DNA of 64,000 bases, taken from IMG/VR virus record IMGVR_UViG_3300049571_000258, positions 70,186 through 134,185 of that record; one strand, written 5' to 3'. Both the position numbers and the translations under genes were made by a program. Under the pieces are notes generated by a model. It ran no database searches and had not been told where the DNA came from. It saw nothing but the letters and a program-made list of their open reading frames with translations. Of the stretch, positions 450 through 56,914 are shown piece by piece (position 1 is the first letter of the stretch; each line of letters begins with the position of its first letter). The stretch comes from a virus. Its lineage: Duplodnaviria; Heunggongvirae; Uroviricota; Caudoviricetes.

Positions 450-673
450 TGGTCGACGGCGTTAATCCCGCTGACCTGATCCCGGCTGAGGCTGTCTACC
501 TCACGGATGGCAAGCGCCTTGTCGAGGTGCTGCTACACGAGGAGGACGGCGACGTACGCGTGCACGACTGCCGCGACGCCGATGGGGCGACGTTCTTCCT
601 GATCCAGAGGTCCGAGATGAAGAAGTGGAAGCCGGTCATCCCGGCACGGGAGGCTGTTGATGGCACGGCGTAG
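449..673 (+). CDS. hypothetical protein
   Basis: ATG at 449 overlaps the TGA of the previous gene; in-frame tail of ORF 128..673; good GC3. Confidence 0.45.
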   Translation: MVDGVNPADLIPAEAVYLTDGKRLVEVLLHEEDGDVRVHDCRDADGATFFLIQRSEMKKWKPVIPAREAVDGTA

Positions 674-5700: not shown

Positions 5701-6943
5701 GCAGCCCGACGAGGCCGTGGCCTACGCGGGCAACTACGCGCCGTGGCAGTTCCGCCCGACCTTCGATCGCCCAGCCTACCTGGTCGGTGTTCGTCGCCCT
5801 CCGGCGGAGCGCACCCGTCAGACACCCGGCTCGCCCTTCGAGGTCGGCGTGGAGGGCGCGATCCCCGCGTCCGACATCGTCTCGGTGACCGAGGTGCGCC
5901 CGTACGCGATCTCGGACGGCAGGGTGACCGCGGCGCCGGGCACCGAGTACGGGCTGGACACCTCCGACTACGTCATCGGCGGGGCCAAGGCGCCCCGCAC
6001 GTACCTGGCCTACCGGTCGCTGACGCCTTCCGACGTGCTGGAGGAGGCCTACCTAGAGTCCCAGCACCCGCGCTCGCGCACGGGCCAGTGGAAGCAGAAG
6101 AATCAGGGGCACCCGGCGAAGCCGCGCAGGCGCAAGAAGCGCACGGCGCCGAGGGGTCGAGACGGCGGCGCCATCACGCTGACGCCTTCGACGCCAGCCA
6201 CACCCAAGCTGCCGGAGGTCCACCTCCCATCGCTGGCGCCCGAGGTTGCGGCGATCGACGGGCCGGAGGCAATGGACGCCTATCTGGCGTCGTTGGGGAT
6301 CGAGGGCCGCATGTCGCCGACGGAGGGCATCTCGTGGGGTCCGTACTCCGCGGAGTGGTACCAGGAGATCGCACAGGCGGTGCACGACGCCGTTGCCGAG
6401 TTTCCGGTGCTGCGTGAGGGGCCTGTGCCCCTTGGGCTGATCTCGCTGCGCTCGAAGGCCGACGACATCTCGCTGTCGGACGTCTCGCGCGCGAAGGGCA
6501 TCTATGCGGTGACGACGTTCGCGCCCGCCCGCGGCCAGGTTGGCATCGTCTTCAACGACTTGACGGCCCAGTTGAACCAGAGGCACAGCGGGCAGGGCGT
6601 GAGTCCGGCGGGCGTGCTCGACTATGGCTTGGTGATGCACGAGCTTGGCCACGCGGTCGCGGACGCATCGGGCCTGTCGTGGGCGATGGGCAAGGAGGAT
6701 GTCAGCGCGTACGGCACGCGTCTGGCGTCGGCCCTCGATGCGGTGGGCCTGACACCGGATGTTGTCGGCCAGCTGTCGGAGTATGGTGCGACGTCGCCGG
6801 TGGAGGCGTGGGCCGAGATCTTCTCGACGTTGCACACGCCGGGCGCGATGGAGCGGGTGGAGGAGACGAATCCAACCCTCGCCGGGATGCTGCGTAGGCT
6901 TCAGGCAGAGCATGGCACCTACAACGGGTATCGAGTCCTGTGA
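2747..6943 (+). CDS. MuF-domain minor head protein with giant C-terminal extension ending in an HExxH zincin-like domain
   Basis: GTG start. N-terminal ~190 aa ends with the MuF signature ...HVGCQCRL. Carries a LHPRGRDGRF peptide. Internal RG...STQ...E stretch. C-terminus is HELGHAV...EAWAEIF (HExxH plus downstream Glu). Confidence 0.85.
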   Translation: MPTKRAQRPTGASRIIAAFGRYYKRSRAGASRRVLALLRREHPEQSPAALRALLAREQVYEAEFQRKMTARLERDIPGILAHDDPDHRNQAIADVLARERRFVQMREQAMAERALAAAEIVTLEKISPQGAFWTLSPDVQNHTLDCLAMANQFWPYEVLHNIHPPLHVGCQCRLIPLRDAIAQGLMRADQIPDARDAVVRAQAAIKAAQSLEEADAKALIEAAFDDRLHPRGRDGRFIRKFSNLIHTKPPAQSNGGRWTWVAGHRVFVPEGRTFQRTFGGRTYVSPAQSTNIYADGKLVPPSRRFAPLTMPDGKLDTGTIERIRSEVGDFAKPPTSEPKPGGQLIDHTWANWGEFQQETNALSAALGREFHVDAQQGNVDFDTRMFDHAGATDYSGNTTFGPDVFNTIEKEATRPTTGLPPTDQELADIYNTYRVQAHEVSHRVNWANHHAYSMPGGAVLEEALSEEVAHALLKANLQRHGREDVLRWGEQHPNADEVLGTYRAYRLALKTALDQMGVPERDRIPILFKLKFQTDPEDRLNEMVRIGRGYLGDAAPDLDDLRETLDRSDYDAAKYRSIIPGDTGLPDPGTPLTERSLVTSMLDGAQLLSRQHANASVHFSGVDWASPEIEYPFNARYFPGRGRVETGAGIYPAIKRAWEADHGGPPLSDDEARDGWMALANLQHEFQHAVNPTPQLQYGQGWKRVLEEGINEEIARQEAVATARRLGMHSVVGWAERNRDDFAVAGTYQSYRQAVRQVLEDAKVPKENWRDLLYRMKFEMTQDERMALLRDHMAKANGWGPDYARDLTALALSRGDHPRELKIDDFEPMLGWPESIVRPPKRVGKADPGTKPLGGRLTPETEETLSNPSWSFEIDHTRRNAYYGDTHVLRVAPRSTPGTRRVGSGDVFTYDTKVADVSIEDGRPTPAFKGGDGWSLDLPDEPQRGIVFRGMSHGEMETLRKTGQIHSRGRFNLGESQVGLTFYSTQPDEAVAYAGNYAPWQFRPTFDRPAYLVGVRRPPAERTRQTPGSPFEVGVEGAIPASDIVSVTEVRPYAISDGRVTAAPGTEYGLDTSDYVIGGAKAPRTYLAYRSLTPSDVLEEAYLESQHPRSRTGQWKQKNQGHPAKPRRRKKRTAPRGRDGGAITLTPSTPATPKLPEVHLPSLAPEVAAIDGPEAMDAYLASLGIEGRMSPTEGISWGPYSAEWYQEIAQAVHDAVAEFPVLREGPVPLGLISLRSKADDISLSDVSRAKGIYAVTTFAPARGQVGIVFNDLTAQLNQRHSGQGVSPAGVLDYGLVMHELGHAVADASGLSWAMGKEDVSAYGTRLASALDAVGLTPDVVGQLSEYGATSPVEAWAEIFSTLHTPGAMERVEETNPTLAGMLRRLQAEHGTYNGYRVL

Positions 6944-8178
6944 CGACGATCATTGACCCAGCCCTGATCGAACAGGCGAAGCGCGACGCGCGCGAGCGCG
7001 GGCAGACGGGGACGACCTGGGTGCCCGAGCCACTGCCGGGGGTACTCCAGGAGGCCTTCGTGGAGCGTCTGCACCCGCGCGATCGCCTGGGTCGCTGGAT
7101 CGACAAGCCGGGTGAGAAGCGGCCGACGCGGCTCATGTGGGATCTCGCCGCGTCGCTCGAAAAGACCTTCATGACGGGCAGGTTGAACACGGTGAGGGCG
7201 CGCAATGACGACGGCGAGATCGAGACGTTCGAGCACGTCTCGATTGACCCCCCGAGCGGCGCGGCGCTGGCCAAGGTTTGGGGTACCTACGTCAAGGACG
7301 GGCAGGTGCTGAAGACCGGCTGGGACATCGACGAGATCGTCGACCTGACGCCCGAGGAGTCCAAGTCCAAGAGGCCGTCCATCGCCGACATCAAGTTCTC
7401 GCCGGAGGTGCAGAAGATCGCGACCGCGGAGGACGCGAATCGCTATCTGCGTAAGCTGGGCCTGGAGGATGCCGACCTGCGTCCCGGGGATCGCGCCCTG
7501 TCTGACCCATCGCCGTCGTTTTACCGGGGGGTGGTGCAGGCGGTGGCAGACGTCGCCGAGAAGTTCCCGGCGCTCCTCAACGGCAGGTACACCAAGCTGG
7601 GCGGCGTCCGGCTGACGTCGCAGTTCCCGGAGGACAAGCTCGACTCGGGGATCGAGCAGGCGTGGGCGGTCACCGGCCCGCTGCCATCCGATCGCTGGCG
7701 CTGGGACATGGTCGACTACGACCTAGAGGCCGACGGGGAACCACCGCTGCCGCCCGAGGCGATGCAGTACGTCGTCATCAACGACACGGTCCAGACCCAG
7801 TACGGCTTCGACAACGACGACGTCGACATGGCGCGGGGTGCGTCTGGACTTGCGGTCGCCGACCGCACGGTCTATGGGCGCACGGTGCACGAGCTTGGTC
7901 ATGCGCTCGCCTGGGCGTCGGGCCAGGACCCGGAGAACTCAGATGACGAGGCTTGGGGTGGGACGGAGCAGGCTCTCAACGAGGCGCGAGTCCCGATGAG
8001 CGGCATGGCGAAGATCTCCGGCTATGGCACCTCGAATGTGGTCGAGGCGTGGGCCGAGATCTTCACGACGCTCCACACGCCCGGTGCCTACGATTGGGTG
8101 GTGGAGCACGCGCCGGAAACCAAGAAGCCGCTGGACCGCCTGCGCGGGCACAAGTACAAGGGCCAGGTGATCATGTGA
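6940..8178 (+). CDS. HPRDR-motif / HExxH zincin-like protein, paralog 2
   Basis: ERLHPRDRLGRWIDKPG near the N-terminus; C-terminal HELGHALAW...VEAWAEIFTTLHTPGA is alignable to the C-terminus of 2747..6943. Confidence 0.8.
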   Translation: MTTIIDPALIEQAKRDARERGQTGTTWVPEPLPGVLQEAFVERLHPRDRLGRWIDKPGEKRPTRLMWDLAASLEKTFMTGRLNTVRARNDDGEIETFEHVSIDPPSGAALAKVWGTYVKDGQVLKTGWDIDEIVDLTPEESKSKRPSIADIKFSPEVQKIATAEDANRYLRKLGLEDADLRPGDRALSDPSPSFYRGVVQAVADVAEKFPALLNGRYTKLGGVRLTSQFPEDKLDSGIEQAWAVTGPLPSDRWRWDMVDYDLEADGEPPLPPEAMQYVVINDTVQTQYGFDNDDVDMARGASGLAVADRTVYGRTVHELGHALAWASGQDPENSDDEAWGGTEQALNEARVPMSGMAKISGYGTSNVVEAWAEIFTTLHTPGAYDWVVEHAPETKKPLDRLRGHKYKGQVIM

Positions 8179-9230
8179 CCCTGCCGATCAGCGAGGAGCA
8201 GCTGGCGCGTGCGCTGGAGCAGGCGCGCGAGAACGTCGCGCGCGGGTCGTTCCCGAAGGTCAAGAAGTCGCAGCTGCGCGAGTCCTTCGCCGAGCGCCTA
8301 CATCCGCGCGATCGGCTGGGCCGGTTCATCGACAAGCCGAACTTCGATCGCTACGAGACGATCGGCGACATGCTGGCGAAGACCGACTGGCACCAGTACA
8401 TGCCGACGAAGTTCGACCCCGACGTGGAGGCGATCAACTCGCCCGAAGACGCGACAAGGTTCCTTCAGGGTCTCGGCTTCCAGAAGTCCAGCATGACGCC
8501 GCCGGAGGGCTACGACACCCCGTCGGCGCACTGGTATCGCGAGGTCGCACAGGCGGTCAAGGACGCGTCGACGAAGTTCCCGGCGCTCAAGAACGGGGAG
8601 CATCCCCTGGCGGGTGTTGTGATCTTCGACCCCGACCTGATTGATCCTGACGAGTTCGACGACGACGCGCGCGGGGGTGTGTGGGCGTTCACGGGCAGCG
8701 ATCCAGCGGAAGGCCACGTCACCGTGGATAGGGTGAGGGATGGCACATCGGGCCTGTTCGTCGGAATCAACCCGGACGGCGAACCCTATAAGCGGGAGAT
8801 GGACGTCTCCAGCTTCGCGGCCCCGGCGGGCGGTTCGATCTACGGGCGCATGATGCACGAGATGGGCCACGCCGTCTCGCAGGCAAACGGCTTCTCGTTC
8901 GACGAGAAGATCATGCCTCAGGTCTTCAACGGGGTGCCCGAGTTTCGTGAGGGGTACGCCAACATCCTGCGCGACTACGAGTTCAGCCTCACCGACCCGG
9001 AGATCGCAATGTTCACGCTGGCCGACATCCGCCCGTCGGAGTTGGCGGCGGTGTCGAACTACTCGCAGAAGAACCCGGCCGAGGCGTTCGCGGAACTCTT
9101 CACGACCATGAACACGCCACACGGTGCCGACTTCCTCGACCCATCCCTACGCGACCACCTCTTCAAGGCGCGGGACGCGATCAATGCCGCCTGGGAGCGT
9201 CTGCGGCCCGGCAAGGGGGATCTGCTGTGA
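8175..9230 (+). CDS. HPRDR-motif / HExxH zincin-like protein, paralog 3
   Basis: GTG at 8175 in an ATGTGA overlap; ERLHPRDRLGRFIDKPN; C-terminal HEMGHAVSQ...AEAFAELFTTMNTP. Confidence 0.8.
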   Translation: MTLPISEEQLARALEQARENVARGSFPKVKKSQLRESFAERLHPRDRLGRFIDKPNFDRYETIGDMLAKTDWHQYMPTKFDPDVEAINSPEDATRFLQGLGFQKSSMTPPEGYDTPSAHWYREVAQAVKDASTKFPALKNGEHPLAGVVIFDPDLIDPDEFDDDARGGVWAFTGSDPAEGHVTVDRVRDGTSGLFVGINPDGEPYKREMDVSSFAAPAGGSIYGRMMHEMGHAVSQANGFSFDEKIMPQVFNGVPEFREGYANILRDYEFSLTDPEIAMFTLADIRPSELAAVSNYSQKNPAEAFAELFTTMNTPHGADFLDPSLRDHLFKARDAINAAWERLRPGKGDLL

Positions 9231-10294
9231 CCTGGTACAAGCCGAAGACCCCGTTCGAGGTCGCGCCCGATTGGATGTCGTTCCGCGGCAAGACGAAGCG
9301 CCTGCCCGACTTCCCTCATCTCGAAGATGTCCAGGAGGCCTTCGTCGAGCGCCTGCATCCCCGCAATCGTCTCGGCCGGTTCGTCGACAAGCCCGACGTG
9401 CTGGACGTGACCGCGACGCAGTCGACCGGCGCGGCGCACGGGGACCTCACCTTCAAGTACGACGACGACATCGCGAAGATCCACGACGCCAGCACCGCCT
9501 TTCGCGCGCTGATCGACATGGGTCTACCAGCGTCCGACCTGCGCCTCCCCGACGAGGTCGCCCGCGACCGGGGTGAGTCGAGCGACTACTACTGGCCCGC
9601 GCAGCAGCCCGACCCGGACTGGTATCGCCAGATCGTCCAGGCGGTGCGCGATGCGCAGCGCAGGTACCCCGTCCTCAAGGACGGCCCGCGGCCCTTCCGG
9701 GGCGTCATCGTGGCGCAGCCAGAGGACCCGGGTATGGAGACTTTCCGGCGGGCTGGCGATACCACCTGGGCGGTGACCGGACCCGATCCGCACGCCAACG
9801 AGATCGTGGGCTTCGGCCGGGCGGATCGCAACAAGCACGATCCGATCTACGTCACGATCAACCCCGGCGCCGTCGCGCTCGACGCGGCCATGGGCGGCGC
9901 GGGCGACCTGATGCCATCGTCGCGCACGTCGATCTACGGCCGCATGATGCACGAACTCGGACACGCCGTCTCGCAGTCGTCGGGGTTTCTGCTCGGCGAA
10001 GCCGATGGCGAATGGGGCGGTCCGCTGAAGGGGCGTGTCCCCTTCCAGTGGGGCATGCCCGAGATCGAGATGCTGAGCCACACCGACCTCACGCTCGACG
10101 ACGTCGCAGCGATGTCGAAGTATGGCGCCTCGAACGTCGCCGAGGCGTGGGCCGAGACCTTCTCGATGCTCAACACGCCGGGCGCGATGGAGCGCGTCAC
10201 CGACCCGACGATCAAGCAGCACATGCTCGACGCACGCGATACGATCAACAGGCTATGGCAGACAAGGCACCCAGGAACCGGCCCCCTGATGTGA
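9227..10294 (+). CDS. HPRDR-motif / HExxH zincin-like protein, paralog 4
   Basis: GTG in a GTGA overlap; ERLHPRNRLGRFVDKPD; C-terminal HELGHAVSQ...AEAWAETFSMLNTPGAMERV. Confidence 0.8.
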   Translation: MTWYKPKTPFEVAPDWMSFRGKTKRLPDFPHLEDVQEAFVERLHPRNRLGRFVDKPDVLDVTATQSTGAAHGDLTFKYDDDIAKIHDASTAFRALIDMGLPASDLRLPDEVARDRGESSDYYWPAQQPDPDWYRQIVQAVRDAQRRYPVLKDGPRPFRGVIVAQPEDPGMETFRRAGDTTWAVTGPDPHANEIVGFGRADRNKHDPIYVTINPGAVALDAAMGGAGDLMPSSRTSIYGRMMHELGHAVSQSSGFLLGEADGEWGGPLKGRVPFQWGMPEIEMLSHTDLTLDDVAAMSKYGASNVAEAWAETFSMLNTPGAMERVTDPTIKQHMLDARDTINRLWQTRHPGTGPLM

Positions 10295-40260: not shown

Positions 40261-41814
40261 GTGGCCACCGGCACAGCTAACGCGCTGCGTGACGAGATCG
40301 AGAACGCCGCACAGGATGAGTCCATCGACCCGTCCGCGCGCCTGCGCATGCTCTCCGCGCTTCGCGGCGACCTCGTGTCTGTGCTCGGAGCGTGCGACCA
40401 GTACATCGGCGCGCTAGAGCGCCACGCACAGTCCCTCGCCGCGGCGCAGCGCGAGAACGTGGAGATCGCGCGCCGGTTCGCCTCGCTGCGCGAGGGCATG
40501 ATCGAGGAGGGTGTCGCGACGGGCGACGAACTCGATCTCGTGGGCATCCTCTCCGAGGCCGAGCTAGACCAGCTGGAGGAGGAGGGCCTGCTCCTGGAGG
40601 CCGTTGGATACCTGCGCAAGAAGTGGGATGAGGCGCTGCACCCGCGTGGTCGTGGCGGCCAGTTCGTTGCCAAGCCGGGGGCGCCCGAGGCGCCGAAGAT
40701 CCGCAAGTCCACCTACGGCACCGACTACCAGGCGGTCGGGCCGGGCGGCGAGATCGCGGTTCGTGGCACGCGCAAGGAGGCCGAGGACGCGCTGAAGGGG
40801 ATCCGCTCGACGCAAGTCAAGCGCGATCCGGGCACGGGCAAGGGCGACACGGGCACGAAGCCTTATCAGGACCCGACCACCACCGAACTGCTCACGGACC
40901 CGGAGACGGTGCGCGAGGCGCGCAAGATGATCCTGTCCGGCAACCCGACTACGCGTGACCGCTACGCCACGGTGAAGGACGGGAAGGTCGTCTACGACAG
41001 GTCTCGCCAGAAGCTGCACAAGGAGATCATCGAGAAGTTGCTCACCGAGGACGGCGAGCACCAGGCGCAGGAGCATCCGGTGGCGTTCTTCACCGGCGGC
41101 GGAATGGCCAGCGGCAAGGGTGGCGTCGTGGACGCCATGAACGGCGGCAAGGGTCACGAGTGGAAGCCGCAGGACGCCGTCACGATCGACCCCGACAAGG
41201 TCAAGGCGCTGATGCCCGAGTTCGCGCAGCTGACCAACGCGGGCGACCCGGAGGCCAACATTCGCGTCTCTGATGAGGCGTGGGACATCTCGCAGGCGCT
41301 GGCCGCGGAGGTCCGCAAGCGCAAGTACAACGTGATCGTGGACGGCGTCGGCAACACATCGGCCGACATGGTGAGGAAGCGCGTCGACTCCTACGTGAGC
41401 GCCGGGTACACCCCACGCGCGGTGTATGTTGCGACGCCCGCGCCGGTCGCGGTCCGCAACGCGCGGATGCGCATGCAGAAGGCGATCAAGGCCGGGAAGC
41501 TGGAGTCGATCCGCTACATCCCCGACGAGATCATGTACGACACGCACGCGCGCGTGTCGAAGGTGTTCCCCGACATCTTGAAGATGTGGCCCGGCGAGAT
41601 CGAGTTGTACGACACGAACACGTGGGATGAGGAGAAGAAGGTCTTCCACACCCCGCGCCTGCTGTTGAAGAAGTCGGGCAAGGGGGAGGAGCCGGAGATC
41701 TTGGACAACGACACCTACGAGAAGTTCCTGGAGAAGGCGCGCAACCCGTACGTCGAGTGGTTCGTGCCTCCGCCGGAGGGTTCTGACGACGAGGGTTCGG
41801 AGGTCGCGGTCTGA
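40261..41814 (+). CDS. HPR-motif protein with degenerate P-loop kinase-like domain (zeta-toxin / polynucleotide-kinase-like)
   Basis: WDEALHPRGRGGQFVAKPG peptide; FFTGGGMASGKGGV (Walker-A-like GxxxxGKG); ...IVDGVGNT...R....GY...VYVATP...R...R, as in the zeta/UNAG-kinase fold. GTG at 40261 preceded by TAGACT. Confidence 0.55.
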   Translation: MATGTANALRDEIENAAQDESIDPSARLRMLSALRGDLVSVLGACDQYIGALERHAQSLAAAQRENVEIARRFASLREGMIEEGVATGDELDLVGILSEAELDQLEEEGLLLEAVGYLRKKWDEALHPRGRGGQFVAKPGAPEAPKIRKSTYGTDYQAVGPGGEIAVRGTRKEAEDALKGIRSTQVKRDPGTGKGDTGTKPYQDPTTTELLTDPETVREARKMILSGNPTTRDRYATVKDGKVVYDRSRQKLHKEIIEKLLTEDGEHQAQEHPVAFFTGGGMASGKGGVVDAMNGGKGHEWKPQDAVTIDPDKVKALMPEFAQLTNAGDPEANIRVSDEAWDISQALAAEVRKRKYNVIVDGVGNTSADMVRKRVDSYVSAGYTPRAVYVATPAPVAVRNARMRMQKAIKAGKLESIRYIPDEIMYDTHARVSKVFPDILKMWPGEIELYDTNTWDEEKKVFHTPRLLLKKSGKGEEPEILDNDTYEKFLEKARNPYVEWFVPPPEGSDDEGSEVAV

Positions 41815-46602: not shown

Positions 46603-46609
46603 TCTCGCG

Positions 46610-46683
46610 AGCGCGGTGGAGCAGTCCGGTAGCTCGTCTGGCTCATAACCAGAAGGTCGCGGGTTCGAATCCCGCTCGCGCCA
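46610..46683 (+). tRNA. tRNA-Met: tRNA with CAT anticodon (Met; initiator-like 1:72 mismatch, or Ile2)
   Basis: Closely resembles E. coli tRNA-fMet (tggagcag.c.ggtagctcgtc.ggctcataacc.gaaggtcg.gggttcaaatcc); A1/C72 unpaired; only 2 GC pairs at anticodon stem 29-31. Confidence 0.65.
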
Positions 46684-46830
46684 CCTCTCATGCAGAAGCG
46701 ACCCGACACCTCGGCCGTCCTGACGGCTGCGCGACGACCGCGCAGGCGACGGCCAGTTGTGCTCTAGGGTCGCTCCCACCTCACGGGAGCCATCCCCGCC
46801 GTCGACCGTAGGGTCCATGGGCGGGCGCTC

Positions 46831-46902
46831 CCGGGTGTAGCTCAATGGCAGAGCGCGTGGTTTGGGACCACGAGGCCGCAGGATCGGTACCTGCCTCCCG
46901 GA
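46831..46902 (+). tRNA. tRNA-Pro: tRNA-Pro (TGG), non-canonical T-loop
   Basis: D gctc/gagc, anticodon stem cgtgg/ccacg, loop ttTGGga, T-arm gcagg-atcggta-cctgc; one T-T mismatch in the acceptor. Confidence 0.55.
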
Positions 46903-46909
46903 CTGACTT

Positions 46910-47116
46910 GCCCTCTCCGCGGGATTGCGGCTCCGGGTCTACGAAGCCTGGCAGGGTGGTTCGACTCCATCAGGGGGTACTCCCTCATCGGCGGTCCGAC
47001 GCCGGGTGTCCGAAGCCTGGACGGGCGGTTCAACTCCGCCTGGGGGCATGCCCTGCGGATGGATCCCGGCTGGCCTCCTAAGCTGGCAACGCGTCGTTCG
47101 ACTCGGCGGCGGGGTA
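46910..47116 (+). repeat. three tandem ~68-70 nt tRNA-like units, each with a T-arm and acceptor-like closing stem but no canonical D/anticodon arms
   Basis: R1 46910-46979, R2 46981-47048, R3 47050-47116. Each carries a stem-TTCGACT/TTCAACT-stem T-arm followed by a 7-nt 3' strand complementary to its own 5' end, and shares ..cgaagcctgg.. in the middle. Confidence 0.4.
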
Positions 47117-50020: not shown

Positions 50021-53000
50021 ATGCCTGGGGCCTCCATTCGCCTACGCCACGACGCGGGTGCCACCGGCACGGGGCTTGTCGTCGCCGAAGGCCTCCTCCT
50101 CACGCTCACCGACCCGCGCTCGAAGAAGCAGCACATCACTCGCGCGGCCGACACGGCACGCCAGCTGCTGAGTCTCGACGAAGCAGACACGACGAAGGTC
50201 GCGCGCGCCCTGGCGGAGCACATCGAGAAGATCCGCCCGGCGGTCCAGGAGGCGGCCACGATGCCGTCGATCTCGGTCAAGAAGGGCGGGGGCCAGGTCG
50301 GCGCCGCAACCGGCGCACAGGGCGCGCAGGTGCGCATGGAGACCAAGTCGAAGGCCAAGCCGAAGACGCGCGGTGGCGTGGCGGGCGAGGTCGGCGCGAA
50401 GGGCGCGCCAGCGGCCAGCAACCCCAACTTCGAGAAGCTGCACCCACGCGATCGCACCGGCCGGTGGGTCAAGGCGGGCGACGGCTACGATCAGCCCAAC
50501 CCGACGGTCTCGCAGCTTCAGCGTCGCCTGGCGCAGCTGGGCTACGGTCCCGGCGCGCCGGACGGCAAGTTCGGCCCGTTGACACAGCAGGCGCTCGCCA
50601 AGTTCCAGGCCGACTACGGCCTCCAGGGCGACGGTTCGCACGTCGACCCCGCTACGCTCCAGGTGCTCCAGAACCCTCCGGCGCAGAAGCTGCGCCAGAT
50701 CCAGGCCGAGCAGCAGGCGCTGGCCAACGTGCCGGACGCCAACGGCAAGGTGGCTGGCGCCACCGGCGGATCTACTGGCGGTACGGGTAGCAGCACTAGC
50801 GCGGGTGCCAGCGGGTCGGCCACGACGACGCTGGATACCACCGATCCCGAGGCGGTCAAGAAGTTCCAGCAGGCGCACGGCCTGAAGCCGGACGGCGTCG
50901 TCGGCCCCAACACCGAGGCACTGATGAAGGGGCTTGGCGTCCACCCCAAGGGCGACTACGTCAACCCGGACGGCACGGTGACGAGCGTCGATCACGCGGC
51001 CGAGGAGAGGGACAATGCGAAGAAGGACTCCTCCAAGTCGTCGTCCTCCTCGTCGGGCACTGGCAGCGCCAGCGGCAGCGCGAGCGGGGCGGCGTCGAAG
51101 GGCGCGAACTCCGAGACGCTGGCGCCGGGTGACGGGCTGAAGGAGCCGAGCGCCGACGTCAAGGCGCTTCAGCAGGTGCTCGACGCGCTGGGCTATGACC
51201 TGGGTGAGAGCGGCATCGACGGCCGCTACGGCAGCGATACCGAGAAGGCGATCCGCAAGCTCCAGAAGCGCTACGGCCTGAAGGTCGACGGTGTTGCCGG
51301 ACCGCGCACGATGCGCCTGCTCAAGCGGCTGGGCGAGCAGGCCAAGAAGAAGGCCAAGGACGACGACATCAAGTCGGGTGACGAGGTCACCGAGGCGCAG
51401 ATCGTCGCGGCGGTCGAGAAGCGCAAGCTGGCCGAGGCCGCGGGCGACGTGGACGCGTTCATTGCGGCGCGCGCCGCGGAGGTTCACCTGCGCGAGAACT
51501 TCATCGAGCGCCTGCATCCACGTGACCGACTGGGCAAGTTCGCGGACGTGCCGGGTGGCTCGAAGGGTTCCTCGTTCAAGTACGGCCCCGGCGACCGGGT
51601 CGTCATCGAGCCTGCGACGAGGCACTACGGCGACCGGGTGCACCCTGGTCGGGTCCACGATCGCTACGTCGACAAGTTCGGCGGGCGCTGGTACACGGTC
51701 GCGACCGGCAACGGCAACGAGGATGTGCTGGAGGATCAGCTGCGCAGGCCTTCCGAGCGCGAGGGTGTGAAGATGGACCCGGGCACGGGGTCGAAGCCGA
51801 AGAAGTCGCGCATCATCCTCACCGACGAGGATCGCGCGTTCCCCGAGACGGCGATGTGGCCCGAGGCGATCGCCGAGCGTCGCCGGGCGCAGGGCAAGCG
51901 GAGGTTCGGCATGAGGTCTGTTCTGGATCGGCTCACCGAGGCGGCAGAGATCCGTGAGTCCGCGACGCCGGGCACGCCCGAGCACATCGAGGCGCGTGCC
52001 CGTGAGGTCGAACTGGCTCGCCAGGTCATGGAGGAGGGCGTGCTGAACGCCGCGGCGCGCAAGGCGTCGGCGACGGTCGTGCGCCAGAAGGGCGGCAAGA
52101 CCGAGTACAAGTTCCCGATCCCCGACAAGGCGCACGCGAAGGCGGCGCTGGCCTACCTGAACTCCAGCGACCTGACGCCCGAGGAGAAGGCGAAGGTGCG
52201 CGCGCGGGCGATGGCGGTGCTGGCCGAGGCGCGGCGCGCCGAGCGCGAGGCGGAGATGGTCGCGGCGCTCGACGAGGCCGAGGTGCTGATGATCGCCGAG
52301 GCGGTGGACTCCCTGCGCAAGGCGTCCACGCACAAGCACGGGCTGGAGTCCAAGAAGGGGCCGAACGACAACTGGATCGAGCGCTCCAGCGCCGACGGGC
52401 GTGGCCAGCTGCCCGCCTACATTCAGCACATCGCACTGGCGCTCGTGCGCAAGCGCGGGATGCCGAAGTCACGCGCGATCGCCATCGCGATCGGCACGGT
52501 CAAGCGCTGGGCGCGCGGTGGCGGCGACGTGGACGCCAACACGCGTGCGGCGGCGGCCAAGGCGGTCGCCGAGTGGGAGGCGCTGAAGGCCAAGAACAAG
52601 GCCAAGAAGGTCACCGAGGCGTGGGACTCCGACTTGATCGACACGGTGTTCGAGTGCGGCCTGATGGAGGCCGACACGAAGGCCGACTACGACGACATGA
52701 CCTGCACGGCGCACGGGCGCAAGAAGTGCAAGTCCTGCCTGATGGAGGCGGTGTTCGAGGATCGCCTGCACCCGCGCAACCGCTTCGGTCGGTTCATCCA
52801 CAGCTTCGGCGGGCGCCGCAACGGCGGCGGTGCTATGGATGGGTTCGTGCACAACGGCAAGCGGGAGCGGATCGACAGCCGCATCGGCGACGGCGGGTCC
52901 TTCGAGGCGCGTACGCGGCGCACGCAGCGCTACGCCGAGCACATGGCTCGCGTGCCCGAGACGCCGCAGGAGCGGGGCCAGCGCGAGGCGGATGAGCGCT

Positions 53001-53503
53001 ATCAGGCCGCGCTGCTGGGCAAGCGCGACCCCGGCACAGCGTCGCCGCAGGCGGTGCAGCGAGTCGCCTACAGCGCCTTCACCGGCGAACCAGCCGAACG
53101 TCGAGCGTCCTTCGATGCGATGGACCTGATGACCAACGATCAGCTGAACACGCTCGACGACACGAACCTCATCACGATCCACACGGCCACCCTGCCCGGC
53201 GGGGAGCGCGGCGCCTATTCGTCGCTGCACAGCCGCGTGGCGCAGATCCTCAAGGGTCGCGACAGCGATCAGGCCTCGCGCTACATGCGTGGGCTGAACA
53301 TCTTCGAGTCGTTGACCGACGCGGCGCTGGCGTTGCGCGAGTCCTGGACGCCGACGTTCGAGGCGCGCCCGTACGTGGACGCGCTGGCCGAGGGCGTGAC
53401 CGACGCTGTGATCGTGCGCGCGCTGCTGAGCGCGATGGGGCAGGCGAGCGGCCCCGACGTCGCGAAGGTCCGCCGCACGCTGCGCGCCCACCTGGAGGGC
53501 TAG
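50021..53503 (+). CDS. very large (1160 aa) protein with three peptidoglycan-binding (PG_binding_1-like) repeats and three HPRDR peptide motifs
   Basis: PG-binding repeats LQRRLAQLGYGPGAPDGKFGPLTQQALAKFQ, VKKFQQAHGLKPDGVVGPNTEALMKGLG and LQKRYGLKVDGVAGPRTMRLLKRLG; motifs FEKLHPRDRTGRW, FIERLHPRDRLGKF and FEDRLHPRNRFGRF; Ser/Gly-rich linkers. N-terminal start uncertain. Confidence 0.65.
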   Translation: MPGASIRLRHDAGATGTGLVVAEGLLLTLTDPRSKKQHITRAADTARQLLSLDEADTTKVARALAEHIEKIRPAVQEAATMPSISVKKGGGQVGAATGAQGAQVRMETKSKAKPKTRGGVAGEVGAKGAPAASNPNFEKLHPRDRTGRWVKAGDGYDQPNPTVSQLQRRLAQLGYGPGAPDGKFGPLTQQALAKFQADYGLQGDGSHVDPATLQVLQNPPAQKLRQIQAEQQALANVPDANGKVAGATGGSTGGTGSSTSAGASGSATTTLDTTDPEAVKKFQQAHGLKPDGVVGPNTEALMKGLGVHPKGDYVNPDGTVTSVDHAAEERDNAKKDSSKSSSSSSGTGSASGSASGAASKGANSETLAPGDGLKEPSADVKALQQVLDALGYDLGESGIDGRYGSDTEKAIRKLQKRYGLKVDGVAGPRTMRLLKRLGEQAKKKAKDDDIKSGDEVTEAQIVAAVEKRKLAEAAGDVDAFIAARAAEVHLRENFIERLHPRDRLGKFADVPGGSKGSSFKYGPGDRVVIEPATRHYGDRVHPGRVHDRYVDKFGGRWYTVATGNGNEDVLEDQLRRPSEREGVKMDPGTGSKPKKSRIILTDEDRAFPETAMWPEAIAERRRAQGKRRFGMRSVLDRLTEAAEIRESATPGTPEHIEARAREVELARQVMEEGVLNAAARKASATVVRQKGGKTEYKFPIPDKAHAKAALAYLNSSDLTPEEKAKVRARAMAVLAEARRAEREAEMVAALDEAEVLMIAEAVDSLRKASTHKHGLESKKGPNDNWIERSSADGRGQLPAYIQHIALALVRKRGMPKSRAIAIAIGTVKRWARGGGDVDANTRAAAAKAVAEWEALKAKNKAKKVTEAWDSDLIDTVFECGLMEADTKADYDDMTCTAHGRKKCKSCLMEAVFEDRLHPRNRFGRFIHSFGGRRNGGGAMDGFVHNGKRERIDSRIGDGGSFEARTRRTQRYAEHMARVPETPQERGQREADERYQAALLGKRDPGTASPQAVQRVAYSAFTGEPAERRASFDAMDLMTNDQLNTLDDTNLITIHTATLPGGERGAYSSLHSRVAQILKGRDSDQASRYMRGLNIFESLTDAALALRESWTPTFEARPYVDALAEGVTDAVIVRALLSAMGQASGPDVAKVRRTLRAHLEG

Positions 53504-55999
53504 GTGTCGCTGGAGGGGATGGCAGCCGGGCGCCGCATGGCCGCGGCGCTGATCTTGCAGGAGGCCAAGGGAGCCATCCCCGAGGGCTACTTTGTCACGC
53601 GCCTGGTGGACGCTGGCGCCACCGAGGAGCAGGCGCAGGAGATCGCCGACAAGTTCATCGAGATCGGCAAGGTCATCCCCGACAAGAAGTTCAACAAGGT
53701 GGCCAAGAAGATCACCGAGAAGGACCGCGACGCGCAGCACTTCATCAACATCGAGGAGGGGGTCATCGCCGACTTCCTCGCGCCCGGCGCGCTGGCTGTC
53801 CACGCCAACATGAAGGCCTACAAGGAGTGGGAGCCAGACAAGCACCCTCGCGATCGAGAGGGCAAGTTCCTCAAGGTGCTCAAGTCGCTCGACGTCGGCC
53901 AGGCCGAGACCCATGAGGGCGTGACGATCACGCGCAACTCGCGCAAGGAGTTCCACCTCAGCGGCGGCGTCGACCGCGGTGAGCGGACGATCGTCGGGCA
54001 CCGGGCCGCCGCGCGCGACGCGGCCGAGCGCGCGGAAGTGGCGGCCAAGGCGAAGGCCAGCGGCGTCAAGATGGATCCTGGCACCTTCCCGAAGGAGGAG
54101 GGGAAGTCGACGCACTTCTCGCGCGCAAAGGCGATGGCCTACACCGTGGGCGTCCCCGGGTTCGTCGCCTGGGATCACGACGAGGTCGATACGTGGTTCC
54201 CCTTCAACGGCTACGGCGACACACACGGCGTGCTGTGGGCGCCGGTGACCGACAAGATCGAGCACGCGTCTGTCGACCTGGCCACGACGCTGATCTCGCA
54301 GCTGCACCTGATCCCTCAGGTGGCCGAGTCGCTGCTGCATCTCATCGCCGCGCGCGAGGACCGGCGTGCGGCGCAGCTGGCCAACGACCCTGACGCGCTG
54401 GTACGTGCACACGCACTAGAGACCGCCCTGATCTCGCATCTGCGCGCCGCCGGACTGCACGACGACACGCTGCGCGAGGCGGTCAGCTACGCGGAGGCAC
54501 TGCACCCGCGTGACCGCAACGGCAAGTGGATCCGCAAGCTAACCGGCGGGAACTCCAAGGGTCTGCGCGCGCTGCCTCAGGGCAAGCGCGTCCAGGTGCC
54601 CGGCACGCACGTCAACGTGACGCGCGTCGGGCGCGACGAGTACGACATCGCCGACTCGCGGTCGGGGCGCGGCAAGCGCCGGATCCAGGGCCACGAGCAC
54701 GCGGCCAACGAGATCCACGAGCGTGCCCGCACGAGCGACGTCGCCAAGCGCGACCCGGGCATCGACAGCGACGCCTACGAGAAGGGCTTCACCCCGAAGG
54801 AGACACACGAGCGCACGCGCTGGTTCAGGCGCAAGGAGCGCAACGAGGCGGCCGAGAGGTTCGAGGAGGTGCTGCCTGGCCACGTCGCGGACGCCATCGG
54901 CTACAGCGCCCTGAAGGTGTCCAGCGAGACACCCGGCCTCAACAAGCTGGGCAAGCCTGCCTACAACGCCTACGAGTGGATCATCAACGGTGGCAAGATC
55001 CCCGACGAGCACGCCACGGCTGCGACTGGGCACGCGTCGCAGCACATCACGTCGGCGGCCGACCACCTAGCCGCCGCGGCGCCGCAACTTGATGATCGGG
55101 TGGCGCACGCCGCGATCAGTGTCGCTGACACCCTCGTGAACTTCATCTCCAGTGGTGGTGGCGACGTCGCACAGGCGCTGATCCACCTGATTGCGTCGCG
55201 CTGGGATGGGGCGCGGGCCGCACGCATCGAGGCCGAGCGCACCGGCGACACGACGGCATGGGCGCGCGCTCGCGCGATCGAGGAGGCGGCGCTGGCGCAG
55301 CTGCTGGAGGTCAAGTACGACCCGCGCAAGCACCCGCGCGACCGGAACGGCAAGTGGATCGACACGCCGGACATCACGCACGCGATCAAGGCGATGATCT
55401 CCGGCGAGTTCCACGGCGACGACCCGAGGCCCCAGACGCCGACGAAGCTGGGCGTCACGCCGTACTACAAGACGAACGACCCCAACTACCCGCAGCGCAC
55501 GTACGCGTCGGCCAAGGCGCTGTTCAACGAGCCGGACTGGCGCAAGACGTTCCGCGAGTTCGAGCGTGACGTCCACCGGCTGGCCAAGGAGCACAACGTC
55601 GAGGTCGTGCACAGCGAGCGCGGCGTGGGCGTGTTCGAGGGCGAGTTCGAGCCGAGCTACAGCATCGACGTCACGGGCGACCCGAAGGACATCTCGGCCT
55701 ACAACACGGCGCTGGGCAAGAAGTGGAAGCAGGACGCCGTGGTGTCCTTCAAGCGCGACAAGCGAGGCAAGGACACCGAGGTGCACGTGCCGGTGAAGAA
55801 TCCGGAGGCGTTCCTGGCGGCGCTGCGCAAGCGCTCCAAGGGCGAGGTCGGCGCGACCTTCGAGGACGGGATGGCGCGCGTGTTCGTGTACGCCTCCGAC
55901 GCGGCGGGCATCAAGGCGGTGGCCAAGGCGGCGGAGGACGTCGGCGCGAAGGCGCGCGCGTTCCGCGGCACCGGTGAGTACATCGAGACGAAGGCCTAG
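53504..55999 (+). CDS. large (831 aa) hypothetical protein with three HPRDR peptide motifs
   Basis: GTG after TAG; DKHPRDREGKF, EALHPRDRNGKW and RKHPRDRNGKW; otherwise no recognisable domain. Confidence 0.6.
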   Translation: MSLEGMAAGRRMAAALILQEAKGAIPEGYFVTRLVDAGATEEQAQEIADKFIEIGKVIPDKKFNKVAKKITEKDRDAQHFINIEEGVIADFLAPGALAVHANMKAYKEWEPDKHPRDREGKFLKVLKSLDVGQAETHEGVTITRNSRKEFHLSGGVDRGERTIVGHRAAARDAAERAEVAAKAKASGVKMDPGTFPKEEGKSTHFSRAKAMAYTVGVPGFVAWDHDEVDTWFPFNGYGDTHGVLWAPVTDKIEHASVDLATTLISQLHLIPQVAESLLHLIAAREDRRAAQLANDPDALVRAHALETALISHLRAAGLHDDTLREAVSYAEALHPRDRNGKWIRKLTGGNSKGLRALPQGKRVQVPGTHVNVTRVGRDEYDIADSRSGRGKRRIQGHEHAANEIHERARTSDVAKRDPGIDSDAYEKGFTPKETHERTRWFRRKERNEAAERFEEVLPGHVADAIGYSALKVSSETPGLNKLGKPAYNAYEWIINGGKIPDEHATAATGHASQHITSAADHLAAAAPQLDDRVAHAAISVADTLVNFISSGGGDVAQALIHLIASRWDGARAARIEAERTGDTTAWARARAIEEAALAQLLEVKYDPRKHPRDRNGKWIDTPDITHAIKAMISGEFHGDDPRPQTPTKLGVTPYYKTNDPNYPQRTYASAKALFNEPDWRKTFREFERDVHRLAKEHNVEVVHSERGVGVFEGEFEPSYSIDVTGDPKDISAYNTALGKKWKQDAVVSFKRDKRGKDTEVHVPVKNPEAFLAALRKRSKGEVGATFEDGMARVFVYASDAAGIKAVAKAAEDVGAKARAFRGTGEYIETKA

Positions 56000-56239: not shown

Positions 56240-56914
56240 ATGCAGAGCACAGTTGAACTAGAGTTCTGTTCGCGTACTGATCCGCGTTACGTGGAGATGC
56301 GCGATCGACACTACATTCCCAATCGAGGCTCCCAGGGACAGCAGCTGCACTTCATCGTATGGGATGGTCCTATCCGTGCGGGCATCATCTCGGCTGGCTC
56401 TGGCGTCTACGCAGTCAAGAGCCGGGACGAGTTCTTTGGCATTCCCAGCGACAAGCGCGAGCGCGAAACGCTGTGGCTGCCAGCGATCGTGAACAACACG
56501 GTGTTTCGGCTAGAGAAGACTCGTCCCAACCTCGGGACTCAAGTGCTGTCACGCTGGCAGCGCGTGACTCGAAAGCTCTGGCCGCTGCTGTACAACGTGG
56601 ATGTGATCGGGTTCGAGACGTTCATCGTCGAGAACCCTACGCGTCGAGGAGCGCTGTACAAGGCGGCGAACTGGACCCATGTCGGCACAACTGTGGGGCG
56701 CACCAAGTCGCACTCGACCGCAGGAGGCATGAAGGACAAGCGCGATCATCTTGACACGGAGCCAAAGATGGTCTACTGCGCTGTGGCAGGCAAGAAGTTG
56801 CGCGTTCCTTCGCGGGAGTACGTTTCTAGCTGGAGGCGGTCTACTCCCGAGGAGCGTGCGGCAGACAAGCGGCTACGCGATCTGCGTAGCGAACTCAACG
56901 GTAGGAGGTTCTGA
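56240..56914 (+). CDS. hypothetical protein on a low-GC (~55%) island
   Basis: ORF track 224 aa; base composition clearly differs from its flanks; no confident motif. Confidence 0.55.
   Translation: MQSTVELEFCSRTDPRYVEMRDRHYIPNRGSQGQQLHFIVWDGPIRAGIISAGSGVYAVKSRDEFFGIPSDKRERETLWLPAIVNNTVFRLEKTRPNLGTQVLSRWQRVTRKLWPLLYNVDVIGFETFIVENPTRRGALYKAANWTHVGTTVGRTKSHSTAGGMKDKRDHLDTEPKMVYCAVAGKKLRVPSREYVSSWRRSTPEERAADKRLRDLRSELNGRRF

Follow-up and report, generated by a model that had tools for sequence, protein, structure and literature searches.

Two abutting genes of an uncultured phage of ~134 kb encode giant modular proteins, here called P1 and P2, that carry three copies each of a short leader peptide. 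A sequence-only reading had treated the motif as a peculiarity of these two proteins, which is wrong, as we have found it to be a widespread tag of phage polyvalent proteins. The leader is most likely a signal for packaging into the capsid and/or for cutting the proteins apart. Our best explanation, to which we give a little less than an even chance, is that P1 and P2 are coupled polyvalent proteins and that the leader is the address or processing tag of each module of a cargo that would be packaged and ejected.

Results

Gene arrangement of P1 and P2

The window analysed (the whole stretch of 64,000 nucleotides) is phage-like, with a portal gene, a primase, 20 tRNAs and all its genes on one strand. 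The two ORFs previously delimited from the letters of the sequence, of 1160 and 831 aa, lie exactly where they had been placed (Table 1). Their GC content by codon position is that expected of real genes (GC3 of 0.91 and 0.92, GC2 of 0.50 and 0.45 for P1 and P2, respectively, in a genome of 68% GC), and an IMG gene call on a JGI/IMG contig encodes a protein identical to P1. Both are in one frame with a single TAG between them, the P2 start codon standing directly 3' of the P1 stop and a GGAGGG Shine-Dalgarno sequence falling within the final P1 codons; an abutting gene pair of the same type is also present in a relative. The best reading of this arrangement is that P1 and P2 would be a translationally coupled pair of polyvalent cargo proteins. 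The pair is ~47 kb away from the portal cluster, amid replication-type genes (primase, DUF6551), and its neighbours are DUF6551, small ORFs and a DruA-like gene.

P1 has homologues in P0029, P0078 and P0100, and P2 has partial ones in P0087, P0014 and P0126, the homology being mosaic, with separate parts of P1 and P2 matching different proteins. Neither megablast of the region nor tblastn of P2 against 50,697 phage records gave close relatives, and IMG/VR scans with P2 and the portal as queries gave no match. A word-indexed protein search with P2, a 45-aa motif alignment and the Q1 N-terminal domain (see below) also returned no match; it was too insensitive here, since an exhaustive HMM search did recover relatives.

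Table 1. Features of the window, with nucleotide positions counted from its first letter
Feature	Position	Strand	Remarks
Portal protein	657..2729	+	phrog_10963 portal, E 3.7e-35; a public gene call from another sample (668 aa) would start at 723
Q1	2747..6943	+	1398 aa, multi-domain, directly 3' of portal
Q1 leader	3416-3457	+	aa 231
Q1 degenerate leader	6050-6091	+	aa 1107
Q1 KADPGT	5279-5296	+	
Q2	6940..8178	+	putative lethal-factor-like (M34-type) zinc peptidase; N-terminal leader at nt 7057-7098
Q3	8175..9230	+	Q2 paralogue, identical to public protein P0104; N-terminal leader at nt 8286-8327
Q4	9227..10294	+	Q2/Q3 paralogue; N-terminal leader at nt 9341-9382
Z	40261..41814	+	517 aa; Pfam Zeta_toxin kinase domain, E 9.3e-25
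Z leader	40624-40665	+	
Z KRDPGT	40819-40836	+	
P1	50021..53503	+	ORF with ATG start, 1160 aa, modular
P1 leader 1	50426..50467	+	NFEKLHPRDRTGRW
PG_binding_1 repeat 1	50498..50686	+	complete; P1 aa ~160-222
PG_binding_1 repeat 2	50822..50938	+	C-terminal half only; P1 aa ~268-306
PG_binding_1 repeat 3	51149..51328	+	complete; P1 aa ~377-436
P1 leader 2	51500..51541	+	NFIERLHPRDRLGKF
P1 KMDPGT	51770..51787	+	87 aa past leader 2
P1 leader 3	52754..52795	+	VFEDRLHPRNRFGRF; core HPRNR, not HPRDR
P1 KRDPGT	53021..53038	+	86 aa past leader 3
P2	53504..55999	+	ORF with GTG start, 831 aa, modular
P2 leader 1	53828..53869	+	EWEPDKHPRDREGKF
P2 KMDPGT	54068..54085	+	77 aa past leader 1
P2 leader 2	54488..54529	+	SYAEALHPRDRNGKW
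P2 KRDPGI	54746..54763	+	83 aa past leader 2
P2 leader 3	55316..55357	+	KYDPRKHPRDRNGKW

Domains of P1 and P2

Both proteins are multi-module, with three leaders each, linkers and mosaic homology, and PG_binding_1 is their sole identifiable domain. The order in P1 is an N-terminal region, leader 1, the PG_binding_1 repeats with their Ser/Gly linkers, leader 2, a small beta module, a K-x-DPGT motif, helical modules, leader 3, another K-x-DPGT and a C-terminal module; P2 has three leaders and two K-x-DPG[TI] motifs and is without recognisable domain. The Pfam family PG_binding_1 (PF01471) matches P1 in three stretches with 152.5 bits against a cut-off of 23 (E 3.4e-45), the best of them (P1 aa 377-434) covering profile positions 2-57 of 57. 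Three well-formed repeats had been described in P1, which is right for repeats 1 and 3, but the middle one is a half domain; the long Ser/Gly linkers described between them are present. PHROG endolysin families match P1 through this region. P1 is thus like the PG_binding_1 endolysins in its full PF01471 repeats 1 and 3 but differs from them in having no catalytic lysin domain, the matches being limited to the binding repeats; a catalytic murein hydrolase or lysin domain was looked for in P1 and none was found beside the predicted binding repeats.

The absence of any tape-measure, capsid or tail-fibre family from P1 and P2, noted before, holds in Pfam, PHROGs and NCBIfam. Compared one by one with these three collections, the modules of P1, P2 and Q1 gave no significant match, and beyond peptidoglycan binding no recognised effector or enzymatic domain was found in P1 or P2. 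A candidate S-AdoMet_lyase in the P2 C-terminus was rejected (17 bits against a cut-off of 28, E 0.0055), and the AlphaFold model of P2 has a mean pLDDT of 46, which makes the Foldseek result obtained from it meaningless.

The leader peptide

HPRDR is the core of a longer leader of 14 or more residues, [FWY]-x-E-x-[LK]-H-P-R-[DNG]-R-x-G-[KR]-[FW]. The window has 12 copies, all of them within seven proteins, and its other ORFs are free of the leader; the six copies beyond P1 and P2 are spread over five further proteins (Q1-Q4 and Z). Three HPRDR copies had been attributed to each giant protein; this is true of P2 (aa 114, 334 and 610) but in P1 only of aa 141 and 499, as the copy at aa 917 reads HPRNR. 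Their spacing, described as roughly regular, is only loosely so (successive copies are 358 and 418 aa apart in P1, and 220 and 276 aa apart in P2). Six HPR[DN]R matches were observed against 0.0019 per residue shuffle of P1 plus P2, and a chance origin of the copies is excluded. The P1 homologues also keep the motif at the corresponding positions, contrary to the lack of conservation that the sequence-only reading had named as refuting it.

Across the 12 copies, 41% of identical residues are encoded by different codons and the mean nucleotide identity of the core is 64%. Judged by this codon variation, selection acts on the leader peptide rather than on the DNA, and recent DNA duplication or gene conversion was rejected as the source of the identity. 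H-P-R and G are invariant, together with two aromatic anchors, and the Glu at position -3 is conserved in 77% of 446 copies.

The view of P1 and P2 as modular, motif-delimited proteins is borne out by 150 related proteins, in which the leader comes after helix-rich sequence and before a Gly/Ser/Pro-rich linker, the copies being a median of 268 aa apart. Upstream of it there is an excess of helix formers, and over the ~40 aa downstream Gly, Ser, Pro, Thr and Asn are enriched and hydrophobic residues depleted, which shows that the leader is placed at module or domain boundaries. The leader is of low AlphaFold confidence in both models (P2 and Q3).

We have found this motif described neither in Pfam or the PDB nor in the literature that could be searched: motif strings (LHPRD, HPRDR, KHPRD and others) retrieved no relevant paper, and the only solved structures containing the motif were spurious WD40 matches. 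Three known types of peptide were considered and rejected, namely an AT-hook (there is an acidic residue within the basic core of the leader), a twin-arginine signal (it has no hydrophobic h-region) and a 2A-like skipping peptide (it has no N-P-G-P).

Leader carriers among other viral proteins

Searching 1.84 billion representatives with a leader profile yielded 523 clusters at E<=1e-3, of which 91 reached E<=1e-10. Of the 523 representatives, the best 150 were analysed as carriers and 35 of these were scanned for domains. Among the best 150, carriers are mostly of 800-7334 aa and all but one have 2-17 leader copies; those looked up are all on contigs of 14-410 kb, mostly 35-134 kb. The 35 scanned carriers contain PG_binding_1, PolyA_pol, ART-PolyVal, Zeta_toxin, HicA, NUDIX, 2H, HD, GNAT, InPase, RelA_SpoT and Topo IB domains, which shows that their repertoire is of the polyvalent type. 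Amino-acid composition points to both high-GC and low-GC organisms.

In the same 150 of 523, the first leader begins before residue 24 in 25% of carriers, and in nearly all of them ~100 aa or more come after the last one (median 317). The N-terminal domain of Q1 is common to 23 of them, the first leader usually coming ~100 aa or less after it. Two cultured phages have carriers directly 3' of the portal gene, Gordonia phage GodonK (gp67, 1479 aa) and Streptomyces phage Gilgamesh (gp48, 4624 aa), each with one N-terminal leader copy near residues 30-50. The leader travels together with its downstream module, an observation in favour of our best explanation: besides the positions of the first and last copies just given, P0087 begins at a leader that lies inside P2, and a lethal-factor-like peptidase domain occurs either fused (Q1 C-terminus) or free (Q2-Q4), always behind a leader. 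Modules behind the leader are swapped between homologues, the insert that follows leader 2 being a different one in P0078.

The portal cluster and Z

Q1 starts directly downstream of the portal gene (2747 against a portal end at 2729), as in MuF/SPP1 gp7 genes. Its N-terminal domain is MuF-like (PPLHVGCQCRLIP), an identity that is not statistically established: the match to phrog_241 'head morphogenesis' is weak (E 0.048 using the family consensus), hhalign aligned the P..H..C.C signature with the portal-MuF fusion of Gilgamesh at E 0.13, and Pfam, including Phage_Mu_F, gave no match. One Q1 domain matches a cyanophage protein annotated 'large polyvalent protein'. Q1 contains three HExxH sites and a lethal-factor-like peptidase domain at its C-terminus. 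This domain and Q2-Q4 have the features of M34 peptidases, that is HExxH, a downstream Tyr and an E-x-x-A-E zinc ligand, and residues H228, E229, H232, Y296, E303 and E307 are invariant in 8 sequences. As the peptidase profile also matches the catalytic domain of lethal factor in the PDB (E 1.1e-7), all four are putative zinc peptidases of the anthrax-lethal-factor-like (M34) type; Pfam, including MPTase-PolyVal, gave no match on them. In the AlphaFold model of Q3 the peptidase domain is mostly of moderate to high confidence, and the leader is not confident and not docked on it; the top Foldseek results with this model were lethal factor and PPEP-3 (a Pro-Pro endopeptidase), not significant (E 0.1-0.6). 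The peptidase is detectable in only six of the best 150 of 523 carriers and in no cultured phage. Z, which has a Zeta_toxin kinase domain, matches phrog_16619 'minor head protein'.

A second short motif, K-x-D-P-G-[TI], is present in only four of the seven leader-bearing proteins, P1 and P2 included. As a general motif it was rejected, DPG not being enriched across carriers (80 observed against 82 expected), and it is lineage-specific.

Discussion

Polyvalent proteins of phages and conjugative elements combine 2-15 unrelated effector domains in one polypeptide, and ART, GNAT, NUDIX, 2H, InPase, RelA/SpoT, zeta-toxin-like kinase and peptidoglycan-targeting domains have been discussed for them (Iyer, Burroughs, Anand, de Souza and Aravind 2017; PMC5512222). 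The leader carriers are likewise giant single chains of unrelated effector domains with the same repertoire, and they share the phage context, polyvalent genes being often beside portal or MuF genes, as Q1 abuts the portal here; zincin hub domains (Q1 C-terminus, Q2-Q4), a Zeta toxin (Z) and, in other carriers, ART-PolyVal are also found. However, no HPR-type punctuation motif occurs in the text of PMC5512222 (0 occurrences), the annotated polyvalent protein of Planktothrix phage Pag-Yong1 has no leader motif, P1 and P2 differ in having no recognised enzymatic domain, and the peptidase found here is lethal-factor-like and does not match Pfam MPTase-PolyVal.

Several observations link the leader to the head: Q1 and the GodonK and Gilgamesh proteins follow portal genes, Z matches a 'minor head protein' PHROG, and 23 of the best 150 of 523 carriers have the N-terminal domain of Q1. 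MuF polymorphic toxins of the SPP1 gp7 type are also encoded next to the portal and carry a head-associated N-terminal domain followed by variable toxins or effectors (Jamet et al. 2017; PMC5576092), and their typical passengers, Zeta-toxin kinase and ART, are found among the leader carriers. The N-terminal domain of Q1 differs in going unrecognised by Pfam Phage_Mu_F, with weak PHROG and hhalign signals only, and the words linker, cleavage, cleaved and conserved motif are absent from the text of PMC5576092, which does not mention the leader either. A precedent for an address is offered by capsid targeting sequences, in which a short N-terminal peptide packages diverse cargo: the N-terminal 30 residues of the 250-kDa DarB of phage P1, a polyvalent protein, and the targeting sequence of T4 IPIII, which is removed by the gp21 prohead protease, take cargo into capsids (PMC9024508). 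The leader is likewise near the N-terminus in single-module carriers, and it is N-terminal in Q2-Q4, in GodonK gp67, in Gilgamesh gp48 and in a quarter of the best 150 of 523. P1, P2 and most giant carriers have it at internal places and more than once (up to 17 copies per protein). A further difference is that the T4 and P1 signals are phage-specific, the Dar proteins of P1 having no shared consensus (PMC9024508), whereas the leader, whose function is putative, is conserved over hundreds of protein clusters.

We suggest the following scheme, in which P1 and P2 would be strings of unrelated modules, each headed by a leader of ~14 residues. A conserved component of head assembly would recognise the leader and thereby bring the modules into the procapsid, where they may be cut apart at or near it; the lineage-specific K-x-DPG-T, 60-90 aa further downstream, would be a second candidate cut site. 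The modules would then be ejected along with the DNA at infection; P1, with its two and a half PG_binding_1 repeats, would keep its cargo close to the murein layer as it enters. As to precedents for processing, zincin peptidases have been proposed to process polyvalent proteins (PMC5512222), and a capsid protein of phage P1 is cut at E120/S121 (PMC9024508). The Glu at position -3 of the leader resembles the sites at which prohead proteases of the T4 type cut after Glu. The rule of the T4 enzyme is L/I-x-E, and inner-body and head proteins of the phiKZ type, paralogue families included, are cut by the prohead protease at S/A/G-x-E. The latter consensus, short and ending in Glu, recalls the leader Glu but has three residues only and no HPR...G-K-F block, and we found no sequence relationship between the two.

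Several facts count against this scheme. With ~47 kb between them and the portal cluster, P1 and P2 are in a neighbourhood of replication-type genes, and they have no recognised effector domain beyond peptidoglycan binding. The low AlphaFold confidence of the leader gives the scheme no structural backing, and the MuF identity of the Q1 N-terminal domain is not secured by statistics. Regarding cleavage in particular, an information-rich motif of 14 residues exceeds what a protease site usually needs, the single N-terminal leader of GodonK and Gilgamesh requires no cleavage, and the rarity of the lethal-factor-like peptidase among carriers means that it cannot be the general partner. A wider version of the scheme, which we regard as possible but doubtful, is that the leader, in the form [WFY]-D/x-E-x-[KL]-H-P-R-x-x-x-G-[KR]-[FW], is a portable and widely conserved capsid-cargo address, possibly plus a processing site, by which tailed viruses of compositionally diverse hosts would package chains of anti-host enzymes in the head.

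If P1 and P2 were instead unpackaged polyproteins for intracellular host takeover, the peptidases of the Q1 C-terminus and Q2-Q4 would cut them at the leader as their recognition site. We consider this unlikely. The window does contain four such peptidase domains, each behind a leader, the leader is located in linkers, and P1 and P2 are surrounded by non-structural genes. M34-family peptidases recognise extended linear sequences, and the top folds, not significant, were lethal factor and a Pro-Pro endopeptidase. However, the peptidase was found in only six of the best 150 of 523 carriers and in none of the cultured phages, GodonK and Gilgamesh with their leaders included, and that the leader is its specific substrate was rejected as a general rule; furthermore, many carriers have the leader at the extreme N-terminus, where cutting frees nothing useful, and the motif is strongly tied to portal-adjacent genes. 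This last association would also go unexplained if the leader worked after delivery, without a role in assembly, by binding some conserved partner, either in the host cell or on the DNA that is injected (a nucleic acid, a ribosome or a chaperone, for example) and so localising each enzyme, which we judge distinctly unlikely. Such a tag would account for one copy per module, for conservation in carriers of high-GC-type and low-GC-type composition, and for an invariant H-P-R and G with two aromatic anchors, too information-rich for a mere cut site, but no similarity of the leader to a solved structure or known binding motif was found, and it has an acidic residue where nucleic-acid hooks have none.

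The sequence-only reading had proposed virion-associated proteins, for example of ejection or bound to murein at the tail. The ejection or cargo part of it fits the context, as the leader heads the portal-adjacent Q1, GodonK and Gilgamesh proteins, but nothing tail-associated was found. That P1 and P2 are murein-binding structural proteins of the tail or ejection apparatus, with the motifs as structural repeats, is very unlikely in our view: their size, their long linkers and the PG_binding_1 repeats of P1 would suit it, but there is no match to a tail, tape-measure or fibre family, no tail gene is nearby, P2 has no PG-binding domain, and the motif also heads zinc peptidases, a Zeta kinase and, elsewhere, ART, NUDIX and RelA/SpoT domains, which are not tail parts. 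Polymorphic toxins of bacteria have boundary motifs, VENN in CdiA and DPxGL in Rhs, that occur once per protein in secreted toxins. They are similar to the leader as short conserved peptides at the junction before variable modules, and DPxGL has a superficial likeness to K-x-DPG-T, but the leader belongs to viral proteins and is repeated before every module. A function of this kind, mainly as a recombination cassette boundary offering microhomology for module shuffling, would agree with the mosaic architectures of carriers and with the swap of modules between homologues seen in the P0078 insert; we hold it to be most unlikely, as conservation is at the amino-acid level and 41% codon differences with 64% nucleotide identity leave little usable DNA homology.

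Polyvalent proteins are regarded as the weapons that a phage injects first, and the leader, read as their cargo tag, provides a concrete and mutable handle on how chains of 1,000-7,000 residues are recruited into the head and on whether, and at which places, they are cut. It predicts the cargo proteins of a phage (seven here, including two without other annotation), suggests sites of processing and brings together giant viral ORFs, unannotated so far and numbering in the hundreds, from metagenomes, and it could serve to load chosen proteins into phages of Streptomyces, Gordonia and related hosts. If the leader is a cargo address, the ejected 'cargo proteome' would be readable directly from sequence, and 14-30 added residues could load foreign proteins into actinophage capsids; if it is instead a peptide that binds something in the host, this would suggest that many unrelated phage effectors have a target in common.

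Results

Leader copies in the window

The window is a phage-like genome segment (68% GC) that has nearly all of its genes on the plus strand and that encodes, besides a portal gene, a DnaG-type primase and a Ro60/TROVE gene; no capsid gene was recognised in it. It has no close sequenced phage, as both megablast and tblastn of P2 gave no match and the best portal identity to any phage record was only ∼25%. The two giant ORFs described in the sequence-only reading (P1, 1160 aa, and P2, 831 aa) are present exactly as reported, and both have a GC3 above 0.9, a signature of real genes. Furthermore, a gene call on a 134,185-bp JGI/IMG metagenome contig gives a protein identical to P1. That reading also assigned three HPRDR pentapeptides to each protein, which holds for P2 (residues 114, 334, and 610), while P1 has HPRDR at 141 and 499 but HPRNR at 917. 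The three peptidoglycan-binding repeats claimed for P1 were recovered as three Pfam PG_binding_1 matches (E 3.4e-45), although alignment showed that one of the three is only a C-terminal half, the other two being complete. The observation was therefore essentially right and slightly overstated; residue shuffles give an expectation of 0.0019 such pentapeptides versus the six observed.

The pentapeptide is the core of a longer motif, [FWY]-x-E-x-[LK]-H-P-R-[DNG]-R-x-G-[KR]-[FW], that we call the leader. A profile search found 12 copies in seven proteins, all on the plus strand (P1, P2, and the proteins Q1 to Q4 and Z; see table), and none elsewhere in the window. Different codons are used at 41% of the identical residues across these copies, which places selection on the peptide. 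In both AlphaFold models the leader forms a helix followed by a tight turn across D-R-x-G-K-F, at low confidence. None of the PDB chains contains the motif, nor is it covered by a model of Pfam, PHROGs, or NCBIfam. Protein Z also matches a 'minor head protein' PHROG.

Coordinates of leader-bearing proteins, second-motif copies, and other features of the window
Feature	Position	Strand	Observation
Portal gene			phrog_10963, E 3.7e-35
Q1	2747-6943	+	Two leader copies; immediately downstream of portal
Q2, Q3, Q4	6940-10294	+	One N-terminal leader copy each
tRNA cluster, first	10521-16871
HTH + calcineurin-like metallophosphatase gene	11175-12371		Downstream of Q1-Q4 cluster
Ro60/TROVE + vWA gene	16969-18735
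Z	40261-41814	+	One leader copy; Zeta-toxin kinase domain (Pfam E 9.3e-25)
tRNA cluster, second	46037-46980
DUF6551 protein	47536-48465		E 6.3e-17
P1	50021-53503	+	Three leader copies
P1-P2 junction	53493-53506	+	CTG GAG GGC TAG, then GTG
P2	53504-55999	+	Three leader copies
DruA-like protein (224 aa)	56240-56914		PF14236, E 3e-9; directly 3' of P2
K-x-D-P-G-[TI]	5279-5296; 40819-40836; 51770-51787; 53021-53038; 54068-54085; 54746-54763		Q1, one; Z, one; P1, two; P2, two

The window has six copies of a second motif, K-x-D-P-G-[TI] (0.008 expected from shuffles), none of them in a protein that lacks the leader. Five of the six copies follow a leader at a distance of 62-87 aa, and the stretch between the two encloses a small beta-rich segment and a helix. 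This motif is rare in other carriers of the leader and specific to this lineage; it is a candidate cleavage site.

P1 and P2 share a reading frame with a single TAG between them, the GTG start of P2 being the very next codon. The predicted Shine-Dalgarno sequence of P2 (GGAGGG) lies within the last codons of P1, which encode a conserved L-E-G end. The P1 homologue P0029 likewise ends in L-E-G, and a 762-aa gene abuts it on its contig, starting at the next nucleotide and in the same frame. Translational coupling is the simplest reading of this arrangement, and read-through of the TAG codon, joining P1 and P2, could be an alternative.

Several other features of the window were recorded. The 20 tRNA genes form two clusters and comprise 18 different anticodons, with tRNA-Asn(gtt) present twice; the first cluster stops just short of the Ro60/TROVE gene, and no Y-RNA family scored above the Rfam threshold. 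On the related contig, too, a DUF6551 gene precedes the P1 homologue, so that this neighbourhood is conserved. The DruA-like gene (Druantia defence) falls within a stretch at 56-58 kb that is the only one of the window with a clearly reduced GC content (0.637 vs ∼0.68) and, for this reason, could have been acquired recently.

Predicted zinc peptidases in the portal region

Each gene from Q2 to Q4 overlaps the preceding one by 4 nt. Q2, Q3, and Q4 are paralogous to one another and to the C-terminus of Q1; in all four, HExxH, a Tyr, and E-x-x-A-E are invariant, and their profile matches the anthrax lethal factor catalytic domain (E 1.1e-7). The best fold matches of an AlphaFold model (pTM 0.70) were lethal factor and a Pro-Pro endopeptidase, both of the M34 family, although they were not significant. 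Q2-Q4 are three tandem paralogous genes next to the portal for predicted lethal-factor-like zinc peptidases; tblastn of Q3 against 50,697 phage records gave no match. The N-terminal domain of Q1 bears a MuF-like signature, P-P-L-H-x-G-C-x-C, and another Q1 domain shares 48% identity with a segment of a cyanophage protein that has the annotation 'large polyvalent protein'. Just as a metallophosphatase gene comes after Q1-Q4 here, the portal gene of Gordonia phage GodonK is followed by a giant protein with the leader, several ORFs, a metallophosphoesterase, and then the major capsid protein, so that the order is the same.

Carriers of the leader elsewhere

An exhaustive HMM search of 1.84 billion representative proteins with a 33-column motif profile gave 523 matches at E<=1e-3, of which 91 reached E<=1e-10. 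Of these 523 carriers we examined the 150 best: most have a length of 800-7334 aa and, with one exception, they have 2-17 leader copies; the contigs looked up ranged from 14 to 410 kb, most of them between 35 and 134 kb. Across 446 copies the consensus reads [WFY]-D-E-x-[LK]-H-P-R-[DG]-x-x-G-[RK]-[FW], with Gly-rich sequence after it. The highest copy number among the carriers examined was that of P0020 (NCBI, 7334 aa, 409,570-bp contig), with at least 15 copies of D-W-D-E-x-K-H-P-R-G-E-H-G-K-F ∼200-1200 aa apart. A Pfam scan of 35 carriers revealed PG_binding_1, PolyA_pol, ART-PolyVal, Zeta_toxin, HicA, NUDIX, 2H, HD, GNAT, InPase, RelA_SpoT, and Topo IB, and nearly all of these domains have been discussed for 'polyvalent proteins' (Iyer et al. 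2017; PMC5512222).

Two giant proteins of cultured phages have the leader close to the N-terminus: GodonK gp67 (1479 aa), directly 3' of the portal, and Streptomyces phage Gilgamesh gp48 (4624 aa), separated from the portal-MuF fusion gp46 by only the small gp47. Searched with a degenerate DNA pattern, IMG/VR yielded 14 loci, several of them with 2-4 copies in a single ORF, and 596 Gb of cellular genomes yielded only 23 single matches. Of the latter, the convincing ones are N-terminal copies in giant ORFs from Nonomuraea, Planomonospora, and Streptosporangium. The giant ORFs at six such loci (L022, L024, L026, L039, L041, and L042; 452 to >2434 aa within the fetched stretch) begin K-F-D-D-D-L-H-P-R-D-R-K-G-R-F-I-E-T, much like the N-terminus of Gilgamesh gp48, and are probably prophage or integrated-element copies. 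P0021, a low-GC-type carrier of 1848 aa, has four copies of E-S-F-V-E-D-D-H-P-R-D-G-D-G-Q-F and shows 34% identity across ∼290 aa with the region just past the portal gene of the thaumarchaeal Nitrososphaera provirus Pro-Nvie1 (L043, 5759-6608), which itself has no leader copy.

Discussion

Copy positions and flanking composition in the carriers indicate that the peptide behaves as a leader of its downstream module. Among the best 150 carriers, the first copy lies at residue 77 in the median (before residue 24 in a quarter), neighbouring copies are separated by a median of 268 aa, and 95% have at least ∼100 aa beyond the last leader (median 317). Helix formers are enriched upstream, and in the 40 residues downstream Gly, Ser, Pro, Thr, and Asn are enriched and hydrophobic residues depleted. 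This reading fits the peptidase domain, fused or free yet always behind a leader, the P2 homologue P0087, which begins at a leader that is internal in P2, and the P1 homologues, which keep the leaders and exchange the modules between them.

We favour a role of the leader as a signal for capsid targeting and/or processing, because it is tied to portal-adjacent genes and, like the T4 targeting sequence, marks otherwise unrelated proteins of one phage. The Glu three residues before the leader His, conserved in 77% of copies, recalls the T4-type prohead proteases, which cut after Glu. The same role is favoured by two precedents: an N-terminal 30-residue signal directs the polyvalent protein DarB into the heads of phage P1 (PMC9024508), and zincin-mediated processing has been proposed for polyvalent proteins (PMC5512222). 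As to cutting after Glu, the capsid protein of phage P1 is cut at E120/S121 (PMC9024508). A rival is that the carriers are intracellular polyproteins cut by the phage's own lethal-factor-like peptidases; however, such a peptidase is detectable in only 6 of the 150 best carriers and in no cultured phage, so it cannot be the general partner of the leader. Other rivals to a targeting or processing signal are that the leader is a host-directed binding peptide or a recombination boundary, or that P1 and P2 are tail or murein structural proteins.

Because P0021 resembles the post-portal region of Pro-Nvie1, the range of the leader may include tailed viruses of archaea. Among 8 million searchable full texts, where subscription journals are partly covered, we found no description of the motif, including in PMC5512222 and the MuF-toxin paper. 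We place P1 and P2 among the polyvalent proteins, a class that is already known; what appears to be new is the motif that punctuates them.
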